From a virus: a stretch of 64,000 bases of DNA. The first letter of the stretch is position 1; every line of letters begins with the position of its first letter. The translations under genes and the position numbers were made by a program. The stretch lies in IMG/VR virus record IMGVR_UViG_3300005721_000046; one strand, written 5' to 3'. Shown in pieces: positions 27,666-50,259 of this stretch. The notes beneath the pieces were generated by a model. The model searched no databases and was not told the DNA's origin. It worked only from the letters and a program-made list of their open reading frames with translations.

Positions 27666-27697
27666 GCATAGAAGGAAATAAGGAAATAGGCATATAA

Positions 27698-27737
27698 GCG
27701 AGTAAGGAAGTACGGATTTCTTTAGTTCCTTACTCGC
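27698..27737 (+). promoter_or_regulatory. 12-bp perfect inverted repeat GCGAGTAAGGAA/TTCCTTACTCGC with a 16-nt loop, directly after the helicase stop and next to GGAAATAAG repeats
   Basis: Seen directly. Possible terminator or operator. Confidence 0.45.
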
Positions 27738-27824: not shown

Positions 27825-28499
27825 ATGCAGGAAACGCCCAAAATTTTTGCTATTTGCGGTCAACCAAAGTCGGGTAAAACCACGCTTGCTCAGATGCTGA
27901 AAAACAGACTTGGCTATCAGATCATTGATGACGCTCGACCATTACGTTCAATCGCGACACAGCATTTTGGCTTATCGTTGGCCGATGTAATTACTCAGGC
28001 GGGTAAATCAAAGCAAGTCGAATTTATGGGACGTCAATGGACGGTAAGACAGATTTTGGGCGAGATCGGTAACGCGCTTGAGGATAAATTCGGTGCCGAT
28101 ATTATTCCTGAGCTTGCATATATGCAGATGTGCCGGATGATGGAGCAGAAATCAATCAAGCACTTTGTTGTACCTTCCGTAAGACGTGATCAGGGTGTCT
28201 ACTGGAAATCAAAAGGCGCGCTTGTTGTTGAGATTTGTAACCCGAACGTTCCGGAGAGTGCGTTTGAATTCGATCAATATAACAAATCGGTCATCGATAT
28301 TCGTTTAATTAATGATTTTGATCCGGAACGAATAGCGGATCCTAATCGAGAACGTCGTCGGCTTTATAATGAATTCGTTGGGCATGTTCAGAAGAAGTTT
28401 GTTAAGCAGATTCAGTCGGGTGTTTTCTGCGGCGGCGTCATTCAAAATACTCCAGAACATATGCCACAGACATTATCGTGTGACGAAAGCGTTCTGTAA
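27825..28499 (+). CDS. P-loop nucleotide kinase (dNMP kinase-like)
   Basis: Walker A 'ICGQPKSGKTT'. 224 aa. Confidence 0.55.
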   Translation: MQETPKIFAICGQPKSGKTTLAQMLKNRLGYQIIDDARPLRSIATQHFGLSLADVITQAGKSKQVEFMGRQWTVRQILGEIGNALEDKFGADIIPELAYMQMCRMMEQKSIKHFVVPSVRRDQGVYWKSKGALVVEICNPNVPESAFEFDQYNKSVIDIRLINDFDPERIADPNRERRRLYNEFVGHVQKKFVKQIQSGVFCGGVIQNTPEHMPQTLSCDESVL

Positions 28500-28609
28500 T
28501 AAGGAAATAAGCATATAGGCATCTACTTTTTTCTCTAAATAGGGAATTTCCTTGCGGTATTTGCTTATTTGGTTATGTTTAAGGCATAGATTCGTATTAG
28601 GGAATTACA

Positions 28610-29263
28610 ATGCCTTTAATCATTGCCTGTTTGTCACAAAAAGGCGGAGTGGGTAAAAGCACTCTTGCCCGACTTATTGCCAGAACCTACGCAGTCGGTG
28701 GATGGTCGGTAAAAATTGCCGACTTTAACACGACACAGTTGAGTTCGTATAATTGGGCGCAAATTCGCAACGGTGAAGGCCATAAACCAAAAATCGATTC
28801 AGAGCCTGCCACCTCGCCTTCTCTTCTCAAACGCGAAAAATATGATCTGGTTGTCGCTGATGGTCGACCGGACTCCGATCAATCAAGTTTGGAAATCGCG
28901 CGAATAGCTGATCTGATTGTTATACCAACCGGTCTACCGCTAGACGACTTGATGCCACAGTTGCGCTTTGCCAATGAGCTCGTTGAAAAAGGCATAGATC
29001 CTCAAAAAATTCTTTGGGTGCTCAACAAGATCACCGATAGCATAACTGCGGTTGCAGAGGCGCGCGATTATATTCGTCAGGATCAGGATTATCGCATCGC
29101 CGCTCAAGAGCTCATGCACAAGATCAGTTACCAGAAAGCGCAAAACCATGGACTGGCTTTATCGGAAGTTGGTCGTAAGGTTGGTTCGTTGGAAGAAAAG
29201 GCTGATCTATTGGCGGCCGAAATCGTAGAGCTTGTTACCAAGTTGACGGAGGATAAAGAATGA
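28610..29263 (+). CDS. parA: ParA/MinD-family partition ATPase
   Basis: Deviant Walker A 'SQKGGVGKST'. 217 aa (small, type Ib size). Confidence 0.8.
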   Translation: MPLIIACLSQKGGVGKSTLARLIARTYAVGGWSVKIADFNTTQLSSYNWAQIRNGEGHKPKIDSEPATSPSLLKREKYDLVVADGRPDSDQSSLEIARIADLIVIPTGLPLDDLMPQLRFANELVEKGIDPQKILWVLNKITDSITAVAEARDYIRQDQDYRIAAQELMHKISYQKAQNHGLALSEVGRKVGSLEEKADLLAAEIVELVTKLTEDKE

Positions 29264-29514
29264 CTGAAGACGTAAAAACTAGAGCAGCAGTTCCGCCGCG
29301 TTCAAACAAAAGCTTTTTGCCACACGAAATCACAGCAAAGAAAGCAGGCGCAGCAAATAACATGCGCTCGGAAAAGACCGTTAAGACGTCTTTGCTGATT
29401 ACCGAAGAGCAACATCGCGATATGCGCTTGGCACGTGTCGAGTACAATCGGCCAGTCAATGACATTCTGGTTGAAGCGTTTTACCAGTGGCTCGATCGGC
29501 AGCGTAAGAAATAA
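29260..29514 (+). CDS. small ribbon-helix-helix-like partition partner (ParG-like)
   Basis: 84 aa overlapping the parA stop by 4 nt. Basic N-terminus and C-terminal helix pair typical of RHH centromere-binding proteins. Confidence 0.5.
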   Translation: MTEDVKTRAAVPPRSNKSFLPHEITAKKAGAANNMRSEKTVKTSLLITEEQHRDMRLARVEYNRPVNDILVEAFYQWLDRQRKK

Positions 29515-29570: not shown

Positions 29571-29636
29571 GCGTAGATAAGGAAATAAGCATTTGCGCAT
29601 TTAGGTATACGCCTATTTAGGTACATGCTTATTTCT
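29571..29636 (+). repeat. symmetric repeat element GGAAATAAGCAT ... ATGCTTATTTCT enclosing two ATTTAGGTA(C/T)AC direct repeats
   Basis: Seen directly. Immediately downstream of the parA-RHH operon. Candidate centromere or operator. Confidence 0.5.
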
Positions 29637-30069: not shown

Positions 30070-30180
30070 TTTAATCCATGCAATAGAGGGGAAATGCGCG
30101 CATATCATTTGCGCTTAAGGCGACCGAATTCTCAAAGTCGCTTTTGTACTTTTAATCCCAACTTTCGATAAAATCAATAA

Positions 30181-30268
30181 ATAAGGAAATAAGTGAATAG
30201 GGGAATAAGGAAATAAGCGAATAAGCGAAGAGGGGAATACGGAAATAAGGAAATAGGTAAATAGAGGA
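30181..30268 (+). repeat. array of about 9 GGAAATAAG / GGGAATAAG / CGAATAAG direct repeats
   Basis: Seen directly. Upstream of the HslV-like gene. Confidence 0.7.
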
Positions 30269-30470
30269 GGACAGAAACCTCAAGGATTGCCGGGGTTTTT
30301 TTAAAGATCGAGCAGGGGAGGTTTGGATTTGAAAGTGTCGCGGCAACTGGAGGCATCCCCGAGATGCTTATTGCGTTGGGCTAAGACTTTCGCTATAGTA
30401 TATTTATCAAGAGAACAGAAAAACAAAATATCTTGATAGTAAAACAACAATTTAATGAAAGAGAAACAAA

Positions 30471-31115
30471 ATGTCAAAAGCAAAACTTAACAAAGAAAAC
30501 AACAAAGAAAACAACAAAAAAGAAACAATCTTAAAAGTTGCTAGAACAATTGAAAACGAATACGTAAAAGCAATTGATGAACGTCTTCAATTAGCACTAG
30601 CAAAAAATGTTTGCGCTGCAAACGAGAAGAAAATGCAAAACATGAAGCGCATGTTGTCAAGTGAACGCTTGTGTAATCTTTTAAGAGATGCAAAAGTTGA
30701 CGCGAATGCATTTTCTCGTGCAATTTACGCAAGCGAAAAAGTCGTAAAATTCGCAACACAAGCAATCGCATTTGACGCGACAAAATTAAACGAAAACACG
30801 CAAGCAATCTTCAAAACTGCAATCAATTGTGCAAAAAACAACGTCGAGTTTACAAAAGATGACGCGTGCGCTTCAATAAGCAAAGATTTAAACGTTGATG
30901 AAAATAAAAAAGCGTATGTTTTTCGTAGAAACATTATTCAACAAGTTTCAACAATTGCTGCACAAAGTCAAACAAGTCTTGACGCGTTGAAAACGCTTCA
31001 CATTATTAGCGACAATGCGCAAAAGAAAAATGTCTATGACGTAAATCTTGACAGCGAATTGACAAAAGCGCTTTGCAAAAACTTTAATATCGACTTGAAT
31101 GCAAAAGCTGCATGA
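30471..31115 (+). CDS. hypothetical protein, paralog of the 32831-33640 gene
   Basis: A-rich, low-GC ORF. 'INCAKNNVEFTKDDA' aligns with 'IKCSENNVSFTQG' in the paralog. Confidence 0.5.
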   Translation: MSKAKLNKENNKENNKKETILKVARTIENEYVKAIDERLQLALAKNVCAANEKKMQNMKRMLSSERLCNLLRDAKVDANAFSRAIYASEKVVKFATQAIAFDATKLNENTQAIFKTAINCAKNNVEFTKDDACASISKDLNVDENKKAYVFRRNIIQQVSTIAAQSQTSLDALKTLHIISDNAQKKNVYDVNLDSELTKALCKNFNIDLNAKAA

Positions 31116-31828
31116 TGAAAGTCAAACGAAAGCGAGTGAATTAACTCACTCGCTTTCAAATGCAAAACCCCTACGGGGCGTCCCACGATTTCATGCGGGG
31201 CGTCCCACGATTCGACACAAATACCAAACCATGGCTACCGGATTGATTATTTCCGGAATGGCGTTCGAAACGGTTTTCAAATGGTCGTCCGTCTTTTGTC
31301 TTGAAATAATTGGCAACCAGAATGGTGTCCATGCTGAAACAATCGGAAACCGGAATTGGCAACCAGAATGGCAACCAAGTTTAGGGCTGAATCAAAATGA
31401 CCGGCACTCTAATTCAGATCCAACGGGAAACCGCTTTTATAACCATCTCCAATGGCGAATTTTTGTCAGGCATTTTGGGCGCGTTTGACCAATTTTGGAC
31501 AGGTTTTCGGCAGGTTTTTCGCTGGTTTCGGGCGGTTTTCAGGTGGTGTTGGGCGAATTTTGGTGGTGGCGGTGTCGGTTTTGGCGGTGTTGGGCGGTTT
31601 TTTTCGGCAGGTTTTCAGGCGTTTTTCAGGCGTTTTTAGGTGAAATCCACGCATCCCACGGTTTAAATCTCGCCGTTCCTAGCCGACGTGTCCATTCCCC
31701 GGAATCCAAGCAAATCCAAAACCGCAAGCTATATCTCGGCTTCTAGGAATCTTGCCATTCCCCGAATTATCCATGGTTTTTAAGAAGCGTATTGAAAAGG
31801 GCTAGAGTTTAGCTCTTTTCAATGTGTT
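31116..31828. repeat. repeat-dense non-coding region. Contains a 16-bp direct repeat GGGGCGTCCCACGATT x2 (31175-31190, 31197-31212), TTGGCAACCAGAATGG x2.5 and about 15 G-rich units with T4-5 tracts phased at about 10-11 bp (31440-31640). Candidate origin / bent DNA
   Basis: Seen directly. ORFs called here on both strands are low-complexity artefacts. Confidence 0.6.
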
Positions 31829-32137
31829 TCACTGTTGCGCTTGTGAGAACGTTAAAGCCTTTAATTCAGCGCGCTTTTGATTAAGTTGCTTAACATATCG
31901 CGCGCGTCTAAATTTCATAACATTGTAGCGTTTGTTATAAAGTTCGATTAATTCATCAACCGAGCGATTTAAAGCGCTTGCAATAAGGCGAATACGCTCA
32001 CGAGTGTTTTTAACAATCTCGCTAAGCGCGATTATGATTTTCGGTTTCTCAAAGCGTCTCGTTGCAAGAGCGACGCTTGCAGCGTTAAGCAATTCAAATT
32101 CTTCGAAAAGGCGTTCGAATGAGCTGCGAAAAGACAT
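31829..32137 (-). CDS. hypothetical protein
   Basis: 102 aa ORF. Confidence 0.4.
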   Translation of the reverse strand: MSFRSSFERLFEEFELLNAASVALATRRFEKPKIIIALSEIVKNTRERIRLIASALNRSVDELIELYNKRYNVMKFRRARYVKQLNQKRAELKALTFSQAQQ

Positions 32138-32489
32138 TTTTTTTCTCTTTCTGTTATTTGATTATCATTAAAACAAAGACAAAAAGAGCGACGATAAGCG
32201 CGATCTCTTCAATTACGTCATAAAGAACAATGCGATTAAGTTCTTTTTCATAATCAAAATGCTGTCTCATTTGTTTCTCTTTCTGTTTGTTTTTTACATT
32301 TTGATAATAGCGTTTCAGAGCGTTGAAATCTCGAGGTGTCGAACGGTGAATACGCTTGCTGATTGGCCTGAATCGGCCGGAAAAAATTGGATAACGCTGT
32401 TAATCGGCCTCAAAAAAAAACGCAGGATTAGCGGCGTTTTGGCCTAAAGGTTCCGTAGATGTTATCGGTTGGCCGGAACGCCAAGGATT

Positions 32490-32658
32490 TTAAGGAAATA
32501 TGTACATAGGCAAATAGGCCGATAAAGAAATAGGTAAATAGGGAAATAAGCACATAAGGAAAGACACACGCCCGTGGGATCAGCGGCCAAGGTGCAAGCG
32601 GCCAAGGTGTTAGTGAGGATAAAGAAATAAGGAAATAAGGAAGTAGGTAAGTAGGTAC
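32490..32658 (+). repeat. GGAAATA-type repeat arrays (two clusters) plus GCGGCCAAGGTG x2
   Basis: Seen directly, including 'GGAAATATGTACATAGG', which resembles the palindromic operator half-site. Confidence 0.6.
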
Positions 32659-32689
32659 AAAAAAAAGACGCTGACCGAAGCCAGCGTCA
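32659..32689 (-). terminator. rho-independent terminator after gene 32831-33640
   Basis: Minus-strand RNA stem GACGCUG/CAGCGUC followed by U8-9. Confidence 0.7.
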
Positions 32690-32830
32690 GTTAAGAGCGA
32701 TCAGAATAGAGAAACACAAGAATCGCCCTTGAAAAGTTTTATACAATTGAAGAAAAATTCAAAAGCATAATAATAAATTAAAGCGTCTAGTGAGCACTAG
32801 ACGCCTATGAGATATCGTTGTTGAGTTGTT

Positions 32831-33640
32831 TCATTCATGAAACATTTTAATGAGTTGACGTGTTACAGGTGTATCTTTCAAAGCGATTACATTGTCGTCA
32901 CTCTTTTCATTATTGCTAGCAATTGCATCAAAAACCTCTAATGACGCGATCATTTGCGAACGCTGCGCTTGAGCCGTTGCTTTTGAAAGGTCGTGTCGCG
33001 TCAAATAACGCGCGTCACTGTGTGAGATGCGATATTCGCGCGATAATGACGCGAGTTGCAGACCCTGTGTAAAAGATACGTTATTTTCGCTACATTTGAT
33101 CATAGAACGTATAAAACAGTTGATTGTCTTATTGCTTGAATAAAAACCTTTCAACGCACGAGCGATCTCTGCAATCTTGAAAAACGCATAGACGTTGAAA
33201 CGGTTTTTAACGCTTTGCTGTTTATTTACAAAACTCTCATTAATGTGCAATGCGACGAAAACCTGACAAATGTCGTCACTCATGAACTGATTTTTTAGAA
33301 CCGTGAGATTATTGATCATTTTCATCGTGCAATTTTCTTTTGAACGCTCATAATCGATGCGAGCGTCAAAGGCGACAGCAAAATGCATGCGCATTTCTTC
33401 AATCTTTTTTACGTCTTCGATTGCAGTAAATATGTTATTGATATCACCTGATATGCTCTCACCGATATCAACTGACTTGATTGCGTTTGTATTGTTTAAC
33501 GAGACAGTTTTAACAACCGGTGCTTTCGCGATCTCTTCTGTTGTTTTGGTCTCTTCAATCTCTTTCGCATTAAGCGCGACGGCCTGCGCTGTAATATCGT
33601 CGAAAATCGCGGTGTTCGTCATGACGTCTGCAAGGTTCAT
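32831..33640 (-). CDS. hypothetical protein, paralog of 30471-31115
   Basis: See paralog. Followed by a terminator. Confidence 0.5.
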   Translation of the reverse strand: MNLADVMTNTAIFDDITAQAVALNAKEIEETKTTEEIAKAPVVKTVSLNNTNAIKSVDIGESISGDINNIFTAIEDVKKIEEMRMHFAVAFDARIDYERSKENCTMKMINNLTVLKNQFMSDDICQVFVALHINESFVNKQQSVKNRFNVYAFFKIAEIARALKGFYSSNKTINCFIRSMIKCSENNVSFTQGLQLASLSREYRISHSDARYLTRHDLSKATAQAQRSQMIASLEVFDAIASNNEKSDDNVIALKDTPVTRQLIKMFHE

Positions 33641-33794
33641 TTTGTTTCTCTTTCTGTTTTGTTTTCGCGTTAATATTTTGATTTCATTGCGAAAAATTGT
33701 TTTACAAGAAAGACTATAGTCAAAAAAAACAAACGTGTCTCAAGGCTTATAACGGTTTGTGACGGTTTGAAATTCCGGAACTTTGAACAAAGAG

Positions 33795-33893: not shown

Positions 33894-34745
33894 TTAGATA
33901 TCTCTAACGCACTTAAAATGCCTTAAGTGCGTTGTTAAAATCACTTCTCCTAAGAATTCGTTGAGACCCAAAATATTATAGTGCTCAACTATTAACTCGT
34001 CGGTGTCGTCACGAGCCGTTATCGCTAAAACCGAAGGAACACGGTGTTTTTCAAAAGCTAAGGCGTAATGTTCCTCTCTGTATTGCGGCTCTTTTACGGT
34101 CTTTGGGGTTTTTCGTAAAACCGTCTTCGATTGAACCGTTCGATAATAAGCGGCTTTCTGCATAACTTCGATTAAATGAGCGCGGTCGCTTTCACTTAAC
34201 TCACTTAGCTTTTTGTTTTTTTCAAATTTTGAAACGAGATCCTTGAGATCGTTGACTGTCGAAAGCTTATTCTTTTTGCAATATTCTTCTGAGGCTTCTA
34301 AAAGCGTTAATAATGTCGGATCACAACGTTGTTGACATTTGAAGTGTTCAATTTTTTCTAGTGAGGAATTTTTAAAGAATTTATTTAGCTTTTCAATCGA
34401 GATAAATTCGGCTGTTAAATCGGCGATGGCTTCCTGGGGTTTATGATGCATTTTTACAAAATAAACAGGAAATTCCATCAGGCGTGGACGGCTGATGGCG
34501 TAATAGATAGCCTCTTTCGTTTTTTCATCGAGTATTACTTCCTCAAAATAAGCTGCGTCTTTTATATTGAGCAGCGTTATGTTTGTATCCCAGTCGCCTT
34601 TTAATTTACGTCGAACGCGTCTCTTGTAGGAATCGCCGGCAGATAATATTAAATCCTCGGCTGTAACGAGATCGTAGATTTCGCAAAAATCCTCCGATTG
34701 TCTCAAGAGATCCATATAGAGAGTCGGTGACTTGCTGTCAGGCAT
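33894..34745 (-). CDS. hypothetical protein, paralog family B member 1 (two internal repeats)
   Basis: Aligns along its length with 35023-35868 ('LEKIEHFKCQQRCDPTLLTLLEASEEYCKKNKLS' versus 'EEKLQNFKCLKPCACATVFIELLKSSEEYCKEHELS'). Start chosen at the Met aligning with the paralog start. The longest ORF starts at 34841. Confidence 0.55.
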   Translation of the reverse strand: MPDSKSPTLYMDLLRQSEDFCEIYDLVTAEDLILSAGDSYKRRVRRKLKGDWDTNITLLNIKDAAYFEEVILDEKTKEAIYYAISRPRLMEFPVYFVKMHHKPQEAIADLTAEFISIEKLNKFFKNSSLEKIEHFKCQQRCDPTLLTLLEASEEYCKKNKLSTVNDLKDLVSKFEKNKKLSELSESDRAHLIEVMQKAAYYRTVQSKTVLRKTPKTVKEPQYREEHYALAFEKHRVPSVLAITARDDTDELIVEHYNILGLNEFLGEVILTTHLRHFKCVRDI

Positions 34746-34831
34746 TTGTTTATTCGCTTTCTCAATCTCAATGTGTGAATTATTGATTGAATTGTAGCGA
34801 TCAATAATAACGCCTTCAAAAGGTATCGTAA

Positions 34832-34847
34832 GGAAATACATATTTCC
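34832..34847. promoter_or_regulatory. perfect 16-bp palindrome GGAAATACATATTTCC (operator-like) within a 45-bp conserved promoter block
   Basis: Seen directly. Identical palindrome and flanks at 35936-35951. Confidence 0.6.
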
Positions 34848-35022: not shown

Positions 35023-35868
35023 TTACATATATCTAAAGCATTTAAAGCATTTCATCTGCTCAGTAGTCGCGTTACTCATAAGATTACTGAACTCGAAAAC
35101 GTTATAATGTTTTTCTTCAAACTCATTTTTATGTTCAAGTAGCGATAAAACGCAAACCTCATGATTAAGAGTGCGTTCGAGATATGCAAAGGCGCGATGT
35201 CTAATGTCGTTATTTTCTTCGTCATATGAACATTCGTAAAACGCTGCATTTTTCATAATCTCGATTGCGTGATCACGATCTTCATTTAAAAACTGTTTCG
35301 TCTCGTCATATTTTTTACTGATCTTGTAAAAATCGTCATGCGTCGAAAGCTCATGCTCTTTGCAATATTCTTCAGAACTTTTTAAAAGCTCGATAAACAC
35401 AGTCGCGCATGCACAAGGTTTTAGACATTTGAAGTTTTGTAGCTTTTCTTCTGTTGCGTTTTCAAAAAACTTGTTGAACTCTTCAAGCGTAATATATTCG
35501 CATGTCAATTCAGCATATTCTTCTTCAGGTTTGTCATGAAGAATTGAACGATAGATACATGAAGGTCTATCATCGTTTTCGTGATAGCAAAAAGAATAAT
35601 AAATAACTTCATGTGTTTCTTTATTAATTGATTGCGCTTCATAATAAGCAGCTTCAATCATGAAAGACAGATCTGTCTCGAACTGACCGTAAGAGTAACC
35701 GTACTCATCATTTTCGTCATCAGAGTGCGTAAAAACTTCATGATGTTGTTTTTGATCTTCTACGTAATGAACTAATTCATCATAGTCAGTTAAATTATGC
35801 TGCACGCAAAACTTTTGAGACTTTTTCAAGAGTGCTAAATATTTAGTATCAGACATTTGCTCATTCAC
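35023..35868 (-). CDS. hypothetical protein, paralog family B member 2 (two internal repeats)
   Basis: See member 1. The internal duplication is visible ('KKSQKFCVQHNLTDYDELV' and 'KSSEEYCKEHELSTHDDFY'). Confidence 0.55.
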   Translation of the reverse strand: MNEQMSDTKYLALLKKSQKFCVQHNLTDYDELVHYVEDQKQHHEVFTHSDDENDEYGYSYGQFETDLSFMIEAAYYEAQSINKETHEVIYYSFCYHENDDRPSCIYRSILHDKPEEEYAELTCEYITLEEFNKFFENATEEKLQNFKCLKPCACATVFIELLKSSEEYCKEHELSTHDDFYKISKKYDETKQFLNEDRDHAIEIMKNAAFYECSYDEENNDIRHRAFAYLERTLNHEVCVLSLLEHKNEFEEKHYNVFEFSNLMSNATTEQMKCFKCFRYM

Positions 35869-35935
35869 TTTCTTTGTTAATTAATTGAACAATAAAGTTA
35901 TAGCGACGAGCAAAAGCGCCTTCAAAAGGCTTCGT

Positions 35936-35951
35936 AAGGAAATACATATTT
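35936..35951. promoter_or_regulatory. second copy of palindrome GGAAATACATATTTCC, 68 nt upstream of paralog B member 2
   Basis: Seen directly. Confidence 0.6.
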
Positions 35952-36009
35952 CCCTAAAGGCGTATATCCTTATATATTTAGGCGAATGTCCGGGAAATCG
36001 CGTATTAAT

Positions 36010-36330
36010 CGCATCCTTGGTTTTCATCGGCTTAGGCTTCGCGTCATGGTTTCTTCATACCTTGGTTTATCTACCTTGGTTTTCACGCCTTGGTTCTTAA
36101 ACCACGGTTTCGCGTCACGGTTCTTAAACCATGGTTTTTAATACCGAGGCATCTTCACCGTGGTTTTGTGTACCTAGGAAAAAGTCCAGCCATTCCTAGG
36201 ATTTTAGGTGTGTGAGCGAAAACTCAGTCATTCCTCGGTTTTTGCACAAAGGCTTCTAGGTGTCTAAACGCGAACTCAGCCGTTCCTAGGCGTATAGACA
36301 AAAGCTCAGTCGTTCTTAGGTATAGTCCGG
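36010..36330. repeat. GGTT-rich repeats (CCTTGGTT x4, GGTTCTTAAACCAYGGTTT x2). Then four copies of core CTCAGYCRTTCYTMGG at variable spacing
   Basis: Seen directly. Confidence 0.6.
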
Positions 36331-36444
36331 ATTGGTTTATGGCTTCAGGTTTACGGATTATGCAGGAAAAGATAGGGCGAAGAGGGGAGGGGTGAATTTA
36401 CCTATTGAAATCCAAAGAGCACGGCGGCGCGGAATTTTTCATCG

Positions 36445-36560
36445 TCCGCTTACGTCCGTTCTTATTCGCTCTTATTCATTCTTATTCGTTCTTACTCGCT
36501 TACATTCGTTCTTGGTCACTCTTGTTGGTTCTCAGTTCGCTCTTATTCGTTCTTATATGC
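36445..36560. repeat. about 11 tandem copies of a 10-bp unit YTCTTATTCG (reverse complement CGAATAAGAR)
   Basis: Seen directly. The unit is the reverse complement of the GAATAAG motif found elsewhere. Confidence 0.75.
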
Positions 36561-36840
36561 TCATACACGCTTCTAATGATCTGAAGGCGTTTTGACGCTA
36601 TCTGTCTTTTTTTACGTCTTGCTAGAATATGTTTTATGCTTAGCGTTCCCTATCATGCGTAAAAACGCTCAGTTGACCCTCTAAGCGCGTTTTATATCTT
36701 TGACGTATGAATTGACGTCTTGTTTGACGGTCGCACTCAGTGAGCTTCTATAGCGTTTTTTAATATGATGTTATTTGTTATAGACCTGTCTTAGTTTTTT
36801 ATGTTTCAGCTTGTTAGCGTTTTAAAAAAAATAAATTTTG

Positions 36841-37025
36841 GCCTAAAACGTAAACTTTTGTCAACTTATGTCGTTCTTGGCCTGAATAATCCGATATCTT
36901 AAGTTGACAGATTGTGGCCGATCGAAGCCGGAATTTGTGTTTTAGGCTGTGTTTTTACATGATAAGTTGACAGATTATGGTCAAAATGGCCTAAACGTAA
37001 ACATTTTATGGCCTAAACGTAAACG
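36841..37025. repeat. GGCCTAAACGTAAAC x3 and TAAGTTGACAGATTRTGG x2 direct repeats
   Basis: Seen directly. Confidence 0.6.
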
Positions 37026-37709
37026 TTACGCTATTTCATTTTCGACACAAAAATTCTTAAGTCTGTTGAGCTTGGCAATGGTTGCGCGAAGATGAGTTTT
37101 TTGCCAAAAGCCTGATGTTTCCATTCGCGAAGGATCTTTTGTGAAAGGTGTATCCTTTCGCTCAATCTTATTAGCCAAATATAGCCATTCAATCGCCTCT
37201 TTAAGAAAGAAGTTATGCCGTTTATGTAGAAAGGACATTTGATAACGTTTTTCTGCCTTTGCTAATTCAGGCTTTAATCGACACAAATGTTTTATAACGT
37301 TTGGTGAATCCAAATGCCGCATAACGTTTCGAACGAGCAAACTTATAAACATTATAAATATTGCGTTTTTAAGCGCCGCTATTGTTAGCAATTCATACTC
37401 GTCGAAGTGAAAGGTTTCCGGTATGTTAAAACCTTCAATCACGCTTTCAATGTTGGCCGATGGTTTGTAATATAATCGATTAAGAATGTCTAAAATGTCA
37501 TGAACAAGATCGTATGTGTTTGGATGTTCCGGATCGTTTAACGATTCCTTAGGAAATTGTTTAGCGAATTGAATGAACCAGAACAGCTTTTCGTTGAGAG
37601 TTTTCCCATGCATATTCTTCATATCATCCAACGAAATTATATCAGCTAGGTCAATCATGACGCTCTTCCGTGTCGTTTTTGTTGTCTTCGTGATTGATAT
37701 ATTTCTCAA
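37026..37709 (-). CDS. hypothetical protein
   Basis: 227 aa ORF. Confidence 0.45.
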   Translation of the reverse strand: MRNISITKTTKTTRKSVMIDLADIISLDDMKNMHGKTLNEKLFWFIQFAKQFPKESLNDPEHPNTYDLVHDILDILNRLYYKPSANIESVIEGFNIPETFHFDEYELLTIAALKNAIFIMFISLLVRNVMRHLDSPNVIKHLCRLKPELAKAEKRYQMSFLHKRHNFFLKEAIEWLYLANKIERKDTPFTKDPSRMETSGFWQKTHLRATIAKLNRLKNFCVENEIA

Positions 37710-39524: not shown

Positions 39525-39956
39525 TCATTCCGTAGGATTTAACGTTATTGTCTGTTTAGTTTCTTCGCAAAATCCGATGAAAGTCGGCATGACGTTGTAA
39601 TCTTTTTGCCATTTATCAGCGATTGCCTTAACTGCGTCATCAAAGGCCTTTTCGGCCTCACGTGAACAAATAAAAACATCTTCGTCGCCATAAAAATCGG
39701 ATATGTCCCAATTCACTTCGCCAATAAGATAATCCATATAATCAGCAAGCCTGTGATAGTAGACTTTACCAAAAATTAAATAGATTTTTGTTGGTTTTTC
39801 AGCGCAATTGGCGATTTTCGTCTTTGCATAATTCACCGCATCTTCTTGCGTTTTGAAAGCGCCTTTGTCCGTCTCGAACCGTTTTCCGTCCAGGCTCAAA
39901 AACCAACCGTCTTCGTTCAATACTCTGTTCAATGGTCTTTTACCTTTTGTTATCAT
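39525..39956 (-). CDS. hypothetical protein
   Basis: 143 aa ORF. Confidence 0.4.
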   Translation of the reverse strand: MITKGKRPLNRVLNEDGWFLSLDGKRFETDKGAFKTQEDAVNYAKTKIANCAEKPTKIYLIFGKVYYHRLADYMDYLIGEVNWDISDFYGDEDVFICSREAEKAFDDAVKAIADKWQKDYNVMPTFIGFCEETKQTITLNPTE

Positions 39957-42725: not shown

Positions 42726-43421
42726 TCAGGAATAAAACTGGTCTTGTTCTTGTTGTTTTTGCCTTATCTCAACAGCGTTTTTTAAACGTTCGATGAAGCG
42801 TTCCTTTGCCGTCATCATCTCTTTACGCTGAATAATACCTGAGGCGCTAGACTTGGCGAATGTTTCTACAAAACGAATGACGATATTCTTATAAGCAATA
42901 ATACCGGAGCCAGGTCGATAATCCTCTACAACCGAAAAAACATAAACGGTTGACGGCTGTACCACTTTAAATTGTGCTACCGAAATAGCTTGGTCAATAT
43001 CTAAAAATGGACCGCCGCCAATACCATTGTTGTTTTGCGAGGAGGGCTGATGTTCTTCAATGTACCAAAAATAACTTTCTGGCTTTTGTTCCCATTGTTC
43101 TTCTTTGATTTTTGTTTTTCGGAAAGCTTGCCTCAAGGCATAATCATCTTCCTGGCTTAATTGATAACCCACGCAGATTTTCTCATCGACTCCATAAGGC
43201 AATCTTACAATTCCGCTTTCAAGGCAACTCAGTAGGCGATAGTCGACATCGGTCAATCTTCCCATGTCGACGACGGTATGATTATGAGCCTTTCGTATCG
43301 TTCGAATTGCATGACCGAAATTCGTTATTTCACTTAGAATTTCAAATAGGCTGTCATTAGTCTTAAAATCCGAGTCCCAGTTCCAGTGCCAATTAGTGCT
43401 CTTTTTGTCCTTAATTGTCAT
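42726..43421 (-). CDS. XRE-family HTH regulator with novel C-terminal domain (paralog 2)
   Basis: Start set at 'MTIKDKKSTNW', which is conserved with paralog 1. The longest ORF extends to 43448. Confidence 0.55.
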   Translation of the reverse strand: MTIKDKKSTNWHWNWDSDFKTNDSLFEILSEITNFGHAIRTIRKAHNHTVVDMGRLTDVDYRLLSCLESGIVRLPYGVDEKICVGYQLSQEDDYALRQAFRKTKIKEEQWEQKPESYFWYIEEHQPSSQNNNGIGGGPFLDIDQAISVAQFKVVQPSTVYVFSVVEDYRPGSGIIAYKNIVIRFVETFAKSSASGIIQRKEMMTAKERFIERLKNAVEIRQKQQEQDQFYS

Positions 43422-46045: not shown

Positions 46046-46085
46046 CCTTATTTCCTTATTTCCTTATTTCTTTATTTCCCTATTT
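46046..46085 (+). repeat. 5 tandem copies of CCTTATTT (= AAATAAGG), abutting the start of gene 45350-46036
   Basis: Seen directly. Confidence 0.7.
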
Positions 46086-47936: not shown

Positions 47937-48983
47937 CTATATCGCCCAGACCCGATAACGTGATCGGCCAGTAATTTCTCTCAATTGCAACGTCTTTAAA
48001 ATCTTCAATACACCGGCCGGAGAAATATTCAGCGCGGCTGCCGCATTTGTGGTTGTAACGACCGGCGTTGCAATAGCATAATCAATAAAAGCCTTGGTTT
48101 TGGATCCCGCACGTATGTTTTCGGTGCGTTCTTGCAAGCGTTCATAACGGACTTTGATTTTATGAGCGTTACGAATGGCTTGCTCGCTTGAAAGCGCATA
48201 AGCGTCGATATAGGCTTTCAAACGCTTCAAACGATTATGATTTTTGCGGGTATTTAACGGTGTTTGTCTTAAACCCGTTGTTATAGAAGGCAGATAATCA
48301 AGCGATAAATCCACCCGAAGGGCAGTGTTTGCGTATTCAAAGCCAAGCCATGGTTTGTTCGGTATTGGATCGAGGTTAATCCAGGCGTCCAGAAGGATGG
48401 CCGAACGCAAGATTGGCGGTTCGTGCTGCGTTGATTTTATAACCTCTTGCCATTTTTCCCATATTTCATCCTGATTTTTTGGCTTCAGCAATTGCTTAAG
48501 TCGGTTAGGCTTGATTTCAAGTGTCTCCGGATTTTCAAGGATTTTGTTTGTACGCTCTAAGATGGCGTCTATATCTTCCAGCTCTCTTTCAAAATCATCA
48601 ATAGCGGTTTTATCACGTGAAGTTTCGTGAGTTGGCTGTTGTGTCAATTGGAATGAATCTGCTTCAAAGAGCCACTCGCGCTTCTTGGTCTCGATCAAAC
48701 GTCTGGCAGCCAGAATATCCATGGCATCGGCAATATCCTGATTAGAAATTGCAACGTCGGTGTTATATGCGTGGAGCACCAAGTCGTTCAATTCGATCAA
48801 GCCGCCTTGAAGATAGATTGAGGCAACGGCTGAAAAGAAATGTTCGCGACTGTTTAGTCCGTTTTTGAACGTGGATGCCTCGATGAGACCGTTGTAACGC
48901 ATGATTAGCTCGGTCGCTTTTATCAGCGGCTCAAGGAGTTCAGAACGGTCAACCGTAGACGATCTATAATCAATTGATTTCAT
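47937..48983 (-). CDS. hypothetical protein with C-terminal HTH, divergent from integrase
   Basis: 348 aa. C-terminal 'AAALNISPAGVLKILKTLQ' HTH-like. This is a common architecture next to tyrosine recombinases. Confidence 0.45.
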   Translation of the reverse strand: MKSIDYRSSTVDRSELLEPLIKATELIMRYNGLIEASTFKNGLNSREHFFSAVASIYLQGGLIELNDLVLHAYNTDVAISNQDIADAMDILAARRLIETKKREWLFEADSFQLTQQPTHETSRDKTAIDDFERELEDIDAILERTNKILENPETLEIKPNRLKQLLKPKNQDEIWEKWQEVIKSTQHEPPILRSAILLDAWINLDPIPNKPWLGFEYANTALRVDLSLDYLPSITTGLRQTPLNTRKNHNRLKRLKAYIDAYALSSEQAIRNAHKIKVRYERLQERTENIRAGSKTKAFIDYAIATPVVTTTNAAAALNISPAGVLKILKTLQLREITGRSRYRVWAI

Positions 48984-49001
48984 TTAAAAAAATATTTCAC
49001 A

Positions 49002-49028
49002 TTAAACTGAAAGCGGCGTTCAGTTTAA
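49002..49028. promoter_or_regulatory. 10-bp perfect inverted repeat TTAAACTGAA-N7-TTCAGTTTAA in the divergent int promoter region
   Basis: Seen directly. Confidence 0.45.
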
Positions 49029-49141
49029 TCACTACCGATAATAACGCAAGCAGTTTCTAACTAATGATAACTATCCCTTATCGTTAGTGTTGAATAAAAC
49101 CGCAAATCATCGTATGGAGAGATAACTTCAACGAGGATGTT

Positions 49142-50259
49142 ATGAGCGACTTAAATCCGCTTTATTCGGTATTGCCGACAAGACAGGTCGAAAACCTCGG
49201 CCATGAACTCAATAGCGAAGATGTTGCGACATTAAGCTACCTTGTTCAGCAAGGCATGGGCGCAAACACACTGCGCGCTTTGGCCGCCGATCTTGCTTAT
49301 ATCGAATGCTGGTGCAAGGCTGCCACCGGCCATGATCTCGATTGGCCGGCACCTGAGACGCTCATACTCAAATTTATCGCTCATCACCTTTATGATGTCG
49401 CAAGGCACGAAGTTGATAAAAGCCATGGCATGCCGGAAGAGGTTGCCTCGGCCATGATTAAAGCAGGCGTTCTTAAGCATGTCGGACCGCATGCACCTTC
49501 GACTGTCAAGCGCAGATTGTCGTCATGGGCGACATTGACACGATGGAAGGGTCTTGAAGGCGCATTTCAGTCGCCAAAGATAAAGAATGCTATTCGGCTG
49601 GCCGTTCGTGCAAGTGAGCGGCCGCGCCAACGTAAAAGCAAAAAGGCGATAACCATTGACGTATTAATCAAGCTTATTGCGACCTGCGGTCAAAGTCTGG
49701 TTGATATGCGTGACAAAGCAATTCTATTGGTAGCCTTCGCATCAGGTGGTCGACGGCGTTCCGAAATCGCAAGTCTCAGGATGAGCCAATTAACGAGAGA
49801 AGCCGACGTTTTAATCGACGCGCGGGATGCGGGGAAGGGGACTATGCCATGCGCTCGAATTAGGCTTGGGCGCACGAAAACCACGACAAATGATGAGGGC
49901 GATTATGCACTGATTATGGGCAGACCCGTCGTTGCTTTGTATCAATGGATTGAGGCTGCGCACATTGATAAAGGCGCAATTTTCAGGTCGATTGATAGAT
50001 GGGGGAATATCAACAATGTGTCGCTTACAGGCCAGTCGATTAATAATATGATTAAATCGCGCGTCAAAAAAGCCGGATTGGATCCTAACGACTTTTCAGC
50101 TCATGCTTTACGAGCAGGTTATCTCACTGAGGCCGCGCGAAAGGGATATCGCTTCCCGAAGCCATGCAGCAATCAGGCCATAAATCAATACAGCAGGCGG
50201 CACGTTATTATAATGACAGTGAGCGCAGATCAGGCTTAGCGGCGCGACTTATCGATTGA
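49142..50259 (+). pseudogene. int: tyrosine recombinase / phage integrase with +/-1 frameshift near the 3' end
   Basis: The main frame ends 'KGYRFPKPCSNQAINQYSRRHVIIMTVSADQA*' at 50239. The adjacent frame from about 50160 encodes the canonical catalytic tail 'AMQQSGHKSIQQAARYYNDSERRSGLAARLID*' (stop 50257-50259). A single-base indel near 'CCCGAAGCC' (50153-50161) would restore it. Confidence 0.75.

Follow-up and report, generated by a model that had tools for sequence, protein, structure and literature searches.

Conserved oriented boxes amid hypervariable minisatellites in a non-coding island of a putative Hyphomicrobiales phage-plasmid

Introduction

What does a repeat-laden, non-coding stretch do between two convergent genes of a virus, and which of its features are signal and which are noise? 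The stretch in question occupies positions 31116-31828 of a 64,000-nucleotide (64-kb) sequence from the IMG/VR virus record IMGVR_UViG_3300005721_000046 (hereafter, the window), where it fills the 713-bp gap between the stop codons of a gene for a 214-amino-acid (aa) protein on the + strand and a gene for a 102-aa protein on the − strand. A preliminary description of this sequence had presented the gap as a candidate origin of replication, on the basis of three families of direct repeats, of phased T-tracts suggestive of intrinsic curvature, and of two paralogous flanking genes that might encode the cognate binding or initiator proteins. We find that the gap is non-coding, that the repeats which first drew attention to it are slippage-prone, hypervariable minisatellites, and that no feature offered and no test run marks it as an origin. 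Two types of short, oriented boxes that the preliminary description missed are, on the other hand, conserved, and they point, tentatively, to a platform of binding sites for proteins encoded nearby.

Shared homologs and gene order with described phage-plasmids place the window, as a low-GC (42.5%) member, in the pLM21S1/RHEph10/B1VFA family of phage-plasmids of the Hyphomicrobiales (Rhizobiales). The 214-aa protein has 49 homologs, and the named ones belong to the Rhizobium phages RHph_X66 and B1VFA, to the Sinorhizobium phage-plasmid pLM21S1 and to Rhizobium and Ancylobacter contigs of 114-120 kb. Their common gene order runs through two ParB_N proteins, a UvsW-like helicase, ParA, an HslV-like peptidase, the 214-aa protein, the island and the 102-aa protein, and is accompanied by structural and replisome genes. 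The pLM21S1/RHEph10/B1VFA phage-plasmids are barely characterised; elements of the pLM21S1/B1VFA type have been described as phage-plasmids carrying RepC, ParA and ParB (PMC4447125; PMC12509600).

Results

The homologous gap was collected from 18 other loci of 39-63% GC (L numbers designate individual loci), giving 19 islands with that of the window, many of them from closely related genomes, so that counts over the 19 overstate their independence. These relatives came from an alignment-based search: a single-sequence search of viral contigs with the locus returned nothing, DNA-level searches of phage and plasmid collections yielded short coding matches only, and a scan of viral contigs for the exact 17-mer of the island was discarded after producing only two chance matches, both in coding DNA. 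In all 18 related loci a non-coding gap lies between the same two convergent genes, with a length of 372-1,035 bp, and the non-coding island of the preliminary description is upheld, together with its position. Its GC content is 47.1%, against 42.5% for the window, and reaches 52-65% in the high-GC relatives. The pair of flanking paralogs needs correction in one half: the 214-aa gene (30471-31115, + strand) does adjoin the island, but the gene at 32831-33640 (− strand) is not its right-hand neighbour, a place held by the 102-aa gene (31829-32137, − strand), which encodes a helical protein kept in all relatives.

The open reading frames (ORFs) called within the island had been considered spurious, and this view is borne out. 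They are open in several frames and on both strands, and they have no PHROG match and no credible Pfam match, the single sub-threshold hit being to DUF6336 (E 0.048, 14.4 bits with a cutoff of 25). The same locus is present in five metagenome contigs at 100% identity over 3.7 kb, two of which (L005 and L007) lack exactly one 13-bp unit while being otherwise identical, an indel that would shift the frame of the largest island ORF. This ORF, moreover, lies mostly inside a 275-bp segment that is missing in a relative with an 84% identical flanking protein. The segment (31216-31490) is a lineage-specific insert that holds 13-bp GGCAACCAGAATG repeats (31308-31377) and is missing in L013, L016 and L017. 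At both edges, the island is bordered by terminator-like hairpins. The one at the end of the 214-aa gene (T1, 31128-31157) is an inverted repeat with 15-nt arms, 93% complementary, which a terminator caller assigns to the − strand; relatives have clear + strand terminators at this position. The one at the end of the 102-aa gene (T2, 31784-31830) has 21-nt arms, 81% complementary, and its equivalent in all relatives is a hairpin followed by a T-run on the − strand. No sigma-70-like promoter match was found inside the island.

All three direct-repeat families of the preliminary description are present. The 17-bp box A, CGGGGCGTCCCACGATT, occurs in two exact + strand copies 22 bp apart (31174-31190 and 31196-31212). 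The second family, AATTGGCAACCAGAATGG, also has two exact copies (31308-31325 and 31354-31371) and a third, 78% identical, at 31341-31358; Tandem Repeats Finder assigns it a period of 12-13 and 2.4 copies. The third is a G/T-rich minisatellite on the + strand (31460-31640; G 67 and C 25, T 74 and A 15), previously given as some 15 units of about 12 bp. Its T-tract phasing stands, but the unit is of 10-11 bp and there are ~13-14 of them. The array holds 14 T-tracts of at least three T, with start-to-start spacings of 9-14 bp or doubles thereof and a best period of 10.8 bp, whose power (6.7, as compared with 0.87 +/- 0.41 for shuffled sequence) was reached by 0 of 1000 dinucleotide shuffles, and the TT periodicity of the island is the strongest of the window, nothing elsewhere in the 64 kb approaching it. 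In a wedge model, the ratio of end-to-end distance to contour length is predicted to fall to 0.46 at 31451-31600, about 10 standard deviations below the window mean (0.934, standard deviation 0.048), making this part of the array region (31426-31625) the most curved 150-bp stretch predicted in the 64 kb, as the suggestion of intrinsic curvature had anticipated. Such strong curvature arises because the unit of one array is close to the helical repeat, and the bend hence looks like a by-product of unit length rather than a selected property.

Comparison with the relatives reinforces this impression of the repeats. In three lineages whose flanking proteins are 84% identical, the 12-13-bp unit is present in 2.5 copies (the window), in none and in ~35 (L041). 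The T-tract array has ~14 units of 11 bp in the window and ~9 in L013, where it is also curved, and is replaced in L041 by 12-bp GGCAGCCATTTC units that are predicted to be straight (curvature ratio 0.94-0.99). Neither array is found in the relatives at 67% and 54% identity (L016 and L017) or in any high-GC relative. An extreme bend is likewise predicted for the window and L013 alone; L016, L017 and pLM21S1 have a modest one, and X66 and B1VFA none in their islands. Even the CGGGGCGTCCCACGATT 17-mer is single-copy in the other four low-GC relatives, L013, L041, L016 and L017, with two copies in some high-GC relatives. The preliminary description had itself named the absence of the repeats from elements that keep the flanking genes as grounds for abandoning them as origin iterons, and this is what the relatives display, the repeats being absent or replaced. 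Furthermore, the gap of several high-GC relatives contains small ORFs on the + strand or additional segments, indicating that the centre of the island tolerates insertions.

Two observations on coding potential within the gaps of relatives may be recorded here. The islands of L024, L027, L028, L029 and L031 contain a conserved ORF of ~40 aa (MLIRSNP..Y.PR...RHGLL.IT.R.IIATG...), whose start follows box A by ~30-60 nt and by implication places a + strand promoter close to that box in these high-GC genomes. In L041 (3910-4539), the ~35-copy 12-bp array opens a 209-aa W-rich ORF (WKPNWQPxW...); a repeat protein was considered and rejected, as six ORFs of at least 69 aa are open there in several frames and on both strands, and the frame is not common to the window.

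Set against this turnover, two kinds of short boxes persist, with consensus sequences GCRTCCCM (M box) and CCRTTCC (B box). GCRTCCCM has seven matches in the window, four of which, all on the + strand, flank the 214-aa gene (30353, 31178, 31200 and 31651). The first, GCATCCCC (30353-30360), lies ~45 bp upstream of a putative -10 element of the gene (TATAGT, 30394-30399), and the B1VFA homolog has GGCATCCCC upstream too, beside a conserved promoter-like CTAAGACTT..TA(T/A)AGT. The next two are contained in the two copies of box A, where the stretch CGGGGCGTCCCACG is invariant over 14 nt in the four low-GC lineages aligned, even though the neighbouring protein drops to 54% identity; an M-type box follows the stop of the gene by ~50-135 nt (~60 nt in most) in 11 of the 19 islands. 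The fourth M box is part of the A' box, GCATCCCACGG (31651-31661, + strand), which precedes the first B box by ~12 nt and has counterparts in L013, L016 and L017 (ATCCCACGG / GTCCCTTGG) and in high-GC relatives (GATCCCTTGA). Three co-oriented B boxes complete the set on the + strand of the window (31672-31762): GCCGTTCCT at 31672, TCCATTCCC at 31691 and GCCATTCCC at 31754. Every one of the 19 islands has two to four + strand copies of CCRTTCC near this opposite edge, the overall count being 56 on the + strand and 2 on the −. Since they are kept across 39-63% GC, the boxes evidently survive heavy sequence turnover.

The boxes are, in addition, local. Within the complete 122-kb genome of B1VFA, a single 3.6-kb module holds all three sites of CCGTTCCCC, all four of CCCTAGG[CG] and, on one strand, five of the 11 of [GC]CCGTTCC[CT], a confinement that identifies them as local cis sites and not as genome-wide promoter elements. 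Four B-like boxes, CTCAG[CT]C[AG]TTC[CT]T[ACT]GG, recur in the window at 36189-36317 (+ strand), in the next large non-coding island and in the same orientation as the B boxes. Two identifications of the boxes were tried and set aside. Promoters of the extracytoplasmic function (ECF) type (GGAAC) on the − strand were rejected because the clades disagree by 4-6 bp in the distance to A' and because the motif occurs in a single module instead of throughout the genome. A weak DnaA (W) box was considered for the M box, which does not match the consensus TCCCCA (PMC4285127).

A candidate for a protein binding these boxes is the product of the adjacent 214-aa gene, a protein of unknown family with a predicted C-terminal winged helix, for which the structural model is confident. 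The 269-aa product of the gene at 32831-33640 is a distant paralog, aligning over the winged-helix half (25% identity over 123 aa, E 1e-8 in pairwise BLASTP). Neither has a Pfam, PHROG or NCBIfam match, and a structural search with both returned no full-length match, only a generic winged-helix domain, and no Rep family or Rep structure. The proposal that the paralogs are binding or initiator proteins thus keeps the predicted winged helix and the nearby paralog in its favour, but gains no recognised Rep family or structure.

Other genes of the neighbourhood show peculiarities of their own. Four genes of the module share a leader, GAAAGAGAAACAAAATG, directly before the start codon (30457-30473, 32133-32160, 32270-32283 and 33638-33654), also kept in B1VFA as GAAAGAGAAACACTATG; this initiation region is unusual, being rich in purines and devoid of a canonical GGAGG. 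Two − strand genes (33894-34841 and 35023-35868), mutual paralogs by appearance, encode proteins of 315 and 281 aa that match no family and have C-terminal FKC...C motifs in common; in L013, such genes stand in a tandem row of three or four.

The module to which the boxes are confined may have a further identity. B1VFA has been published as having fixed ends and a direct terminal repeat (DTR) of 3,605 bp, given without coordinates, and V1VFA-S as having a DTR of ~3,939 bp, a coverage estimate (PMC12509600). With both genomes assembled, we sought by indel arithmetic those 3,605-bp windows of B1VFA that match 3,939 bp in V1VFA-S. At a tolerance of +/-2 bp there is one solution, running from 39,631-39,808 to 43,235-43,412 of B1VFA (MT770738.1; ~8,752-12,534 of L018), with a difference of 335 as against 334; at +/-12 bp the solution region widens and a second candidate appears within structural genes, at 65.1-65.5 kb. 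Both ends of the first solution are intergenic, and between them lie exactly the island, the genes for the 214-aa homolog (preceded by its promoter) and for a 307-aa paralog, and a further pair of small genes. This arithmetic suggests that in B1VFA the terminal repeat includes the island, at 0.7-2.4 kb from the repeat ends, a placement that would extend to the window by synteny only.

The window also contains a repeat system quite distinct from that of the island. Arrays of an 8-bp (R)AATARGN unit, with 24 tandem-dimer matches where 0.5 are expected and up to 11 copies, occupy seven intergenic and mostly promoter-proximal loci (27676-27698, 28497-28519, 29575-29589, 30179-30265, 32504-32558, 32625-32647 and 46047-46085), and the corresponding places in high-GC relatives have 8-bp TAGCTAnn arrays. 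The arrays at 28497-28519 and 29575-29589 bracket an operon formed by a small parA and an 84-aa ORF that overlaps its end (29260-29514, + strand). The N-terminal half of the 84-aa protein is disordered and is followed by a strand-helix-helix sequence pattern, KTSLLITEEQHRDMRLARVEYNRPVNDILVEAFYQWL; an AlphaFold2 model has two C-terminal helices at a mean confidence (pLDDT 62) too weak to confirm a ribbon-helix-helix fold. The 84-aa protein is likely a type Ib centromere-binding protein, and the arrays look like an operator-centromere system of the omega/ParG type.

Two more non-coding islands lie nearby. The larger (35869-37025, 1.15 kb) has at least five repeat classes, among them, besides the B-like boxes at 36189-36317, CC(A/T)(C/T)GGTTT units (36040-36170), ten 10-bp CGTTCTTATT units (36457-36556) and, at 36840-37030, three copies of GGCCTAAACGTAAAC and two of AAGTTGACAGATT(G/A)TGG. 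The other (32284-32830) carries 8-bp arrays, two copies of AGCGGCCAAGGTG, several TGGCC(G/T) motifs, two − strand terminators and an inverted M-like box at 32572-32580 (− strand); TGGCCG-type motifs are found again in the corresponding gaps of B1VFA. The neighbours of the island also include a dNMP-kinase-like protein, and further off lie a tail tape measure protein, a ribonucleotide reductase, ThyX and an SPFH protein. A gene for a DUF1612 and HTH_13 protein (47937-48983, − strand) adjoins a tyrosine recombinase gene (49142-50239, + strand); pLM21S1 reportedly has no integrase. Since an assembly of the window's phage from one metagenome breaks at ~49.8-50.3 kb, 47937-50239 may be a variable module.

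Discussion

The reading that we favour, with a confidence just short of even, is that the island serves as a transcription-free platform of binding sites for proteins encoded in its own module. It would act as a spacer between two convergent transcription units, each closed by a terminator-like hairpin, in what may be the early or maintenance control region of a phage-plasmid of the pLM21S1/RHEph10/B1VFA type. Its selected content would amount to a few short co-oriented boxes: M boxes that follow the 214-aa gene and recur at its promoter, and B boxes, two to four of them, beside the terminator of the other unit. The proteins that may bind them would be products of this module, the flanking paralogs with the winged helix being the most plausible. 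The resulting local nucleoprotein platform could provide autoregulation or insulation of the module, possibly by a DNA loop that joins the box at the promoter to those downstream, and the centre, presumably unconstrained, could fill with minisatellites, G-rich arrays or, in relatives, small inserted ORFs. The kept position of the island, the orientation of the boxes and their confinement to the module, the winged-helix model, the terminator-like hairpins at both edges with no sigma-70-like promoter match between them, and the hypervariability of the arrays all speak for such a platform. Several observations weigh against it. The spacing from A' to B is ~12 nt in the low-GC clade and ~6 nt in the high-GC clade, that among B boxes is irregular (16-63 bp), and the putative binding boxes match no known consensus. 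Most boxes lie downstream of terminators and without a detectable promoter, whereas a site of purely regulatory function should be close to one. So extreme a strand asymmetry and the recurrence of G-rich arrays in many relatives hint at more than neutral filler, and the counts over 19 islands overstate independence, many of the genomes being closely related.

The origin of replication originally proposed finds no support, as the island shows no defining feature of a known origin type. It contains no TTATCCACA with one mismatch or fewer, the search for DnaA boxes that had been suggested giving a window-wide count at chance, and no G-box or W-box (TCCCCA) of the Caulobacter type, with consensus sequences taken from PMC4285127, and matches neither the CtrA nor the IHF consensus. 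Its GC content exceeds that of the window, and AT-rich stretches are lacking, no 40-bp window reaching 75% AT and the maximum of 68% falling at the 85th percentile of the 64 kb. The listed repeats are not conserved. Cumulative GC skew, uninformative here, has no inflection at 31.1-31.8 kb of the window and is weak in the complete pLM21S1, where it follows gene orientation and has no clear extremum at the island. An amended version, in which the M and B boxes are the iterons and the winged-helix protein an initiator that regulates its own gene and serves phage-mode (lytic) replication or a second plasmid origin, with a curved or G-rich centre that might aid wrapping or R-loop formation, seems to us unlikely, though not negligible. 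A winged-helix gene with a box at its own promoter and co-oriented boxes downstream does recall, by analogy, autoregulated iteron replicons. The terminator-like hairpins shield the island from transcription, the boxes keep to a single module, and the phage, which has replisome genes of its own, has no identified lytic origin; a roughly 4-fold excess of GANTC sites (four in 713 bp) is only a mild positive. Beyond the missing boxes, AT-rich stretch and skew inflection, however, the amended version must accommodate ORFs and large arrays inserted between the box groups of relatives, a 214-aa protein that matches no Rep family or Rep structure, and the location of repC. There is no RepC homolog in the window, outside which repC falls by synteny, and the gene lies 50-65 kb from the island in the two complete relatives (repC at 0 kb and island at 66 kb of 117.5 kb in pLM21S1; repC at 92.4-93.5 kb and island at 42.1-42.6 kb in B1VFA).

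Other functions fare no better. That the island is the centromere for the ParA system of a plasmid prophage is very unlikely: this phage-plasmid does encode ParA, 1.9 kb upstream of the island, and two ParB_N proteins, the island is shielded from transcription and its arrays of ~11-bp direct repeats may recall R1 parC, but the (R)AATARGN arrays fit this role much better, bracketing as they do the operon of parA and the 84-aa protein, whose strand-helix-helix pattern resembles, at low confidence, type Ib centromere binders. The 11-bp array, in turn, is absent from most relatives that keep ParA, and the island lies 1.6 kb beyond the par operon, with no arrays of its own flanking it. Even less probable, to the point of being hardly credible, is a structured or sponge-like non-coding RNA, such as a C/A-rich − strand repeat RNA ending at a hairpin at 31179-31167. 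Terminator-like sites do exist on the − strand (31179-31167 and 31158-31127), and six high-GC relatives have inside the island a hairpin, CCTAAGCCG-[stem-loop]-CGGCGGAnCCC, with compensatory changes in five of ten pairs (L022 6812-6848, L023 7031-7070, L024 6975-7012, L030 6974-7012, L031 7116-7161 and L009 10196-10240); it has no T-run and is not an obvious terminator. This hairpin is not kept in the low-GC clade, however, and the sequence is not conserved even among the relatives at 84%. The island has no promoter-like match, its fold energy is less stable than that of shuffled sequences on both strands (z +1.36), Rfam and tRNA scans found nothing inside it, and no Rfam family besides tRNAs was detected in the window or in 12 related loci. 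A neutral spacer, a gap between convergent terminators that gathers slippage repeats and insertions while the boxes belong to terminators or 3' ends, would explain the extreme variability of the centre, in its length (372-1,035 bp) as in its sequence and content, the copy-number polymorphism between otherwise identical genomes, and a curvature for which unit length alone suffices. We nonetheless judge it improbable, because box A stays invariant over 14 nt beside a protein only 54% identical, because the B boxes are co-oriented in every island from 39 to 63% GC and all but missing elsewhere in a 122-kb genome, and because the island is never lost. A cis site for the processing, packaging or entry of linear virion DNA, whether for terminase recognition in the DTR, for cyclisation after injection or for a T5-like stop or control of stepwise entry, strikes us as comparably improbable. 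The sole +/-2 bp solution for the B1VFA DTR contains the island and the B boxes are confined to that putative DTR module; pac and cos sites, moreover, typically combine repeated boxes with bent DNA (lambda cosB, SPP1 pac), an analogy that the island might fit. Yet the bend is not conserved, the terminase genes are ~10-12 kb off, and the island is not the cut site itself, the putative ends lying ~0.7 and 2.3 kb away. Those ends, moreover, are deduced for B1VFA only, the V1VFA-S length is coverage-based, and a second candidate emerges at +/-12 bp.

With the binding-site platform as the preferred reading, the wider lesson of the locus lies in the separation of what is conspicuous from what is conserved: the striking repeats and the bend are noise, and two oriented box types and a winged-helix family are what endures. 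It is hence a cautionary case, in which tandem repeats with a unit near 10.5 bp give a textbook origin-like bend by construction. A 3.6-kb module is, moreover, singled out as the predicted terminal repeat. Bolder, and in our view doubtful, is the notion that the island and the two winged-helix paralogs form a control element borne on the terminal repeat, whose DTR-confined M and B boxes start phage-mode replication or govern cyclisation or entry; if true, it would provide a new initiator/site pair unrelated to known Rep families.

Several known systems bear comparison with the island. Autoregulated iteron replicons are represented by P1 oriR-repA-incA, pSC101 and F RepE, and the lambda ori likewise has bent iterons. 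The island resembles them in the winged-helix gene with a box at its promoter and several co-oriented boxes just beyond it, in the curved DNA beside the boxes in this lineage and in the phage-plasmid nature of the host element. It departs from them in an irregular box spacing of 16-63 bp, where theirs is ~22 bp, in lacking DnaA boxes, an AT-rich unwinding element and a protein with a Rep match, in box groups split by a hypervariable segment of 150-800 bp that accepts ORFs, and in a family whose RepC is encoded elsewhere. Short-repeat arrays of the type Ib and omega systems (pB171 parC1/parC2, TP228 parH, the pSM19035 omega heptads) are likewise tandem, direct and intergenic, on plasmid-like elements with a small ParA and a small putative ribbon-helix-helix protein; the (R)AATARGN arrays answer this description, whereas those of the island neither flank the par operon nor are conserved. 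Phage T5, like the present family, is a siphophage of ~120 kb with a long exact DTR, and its terminal repeat holds a non-coding repeat region, the injection-stop region, much as the putative repeat here has a repeat-rich non-coding stretch surrounded by small genes that each end in a terminator of their own. The two share no homology in sequence or protein, however, the DTR position is deduced for B1VFA only, and the likeness to two-step entry would be one of analogy. The 14 T-tracts phased at 10.8 bp over ~180 bp parallel A-tract curved DNA of the kinetoplast type, but the bend of the island is not conserved among relatives. Lastly, the minisatellite or variable-number tandem repeat loci of bacterial and phage intergenic regions share with the island units of 11-13 bp, a copy number that changes between identical genomes and close relatives, and ORFs open in many frames as an artefact; they differ in that the arrays of the island lie between conserved, oriented boxes, in a gap that is kept across a virus family.

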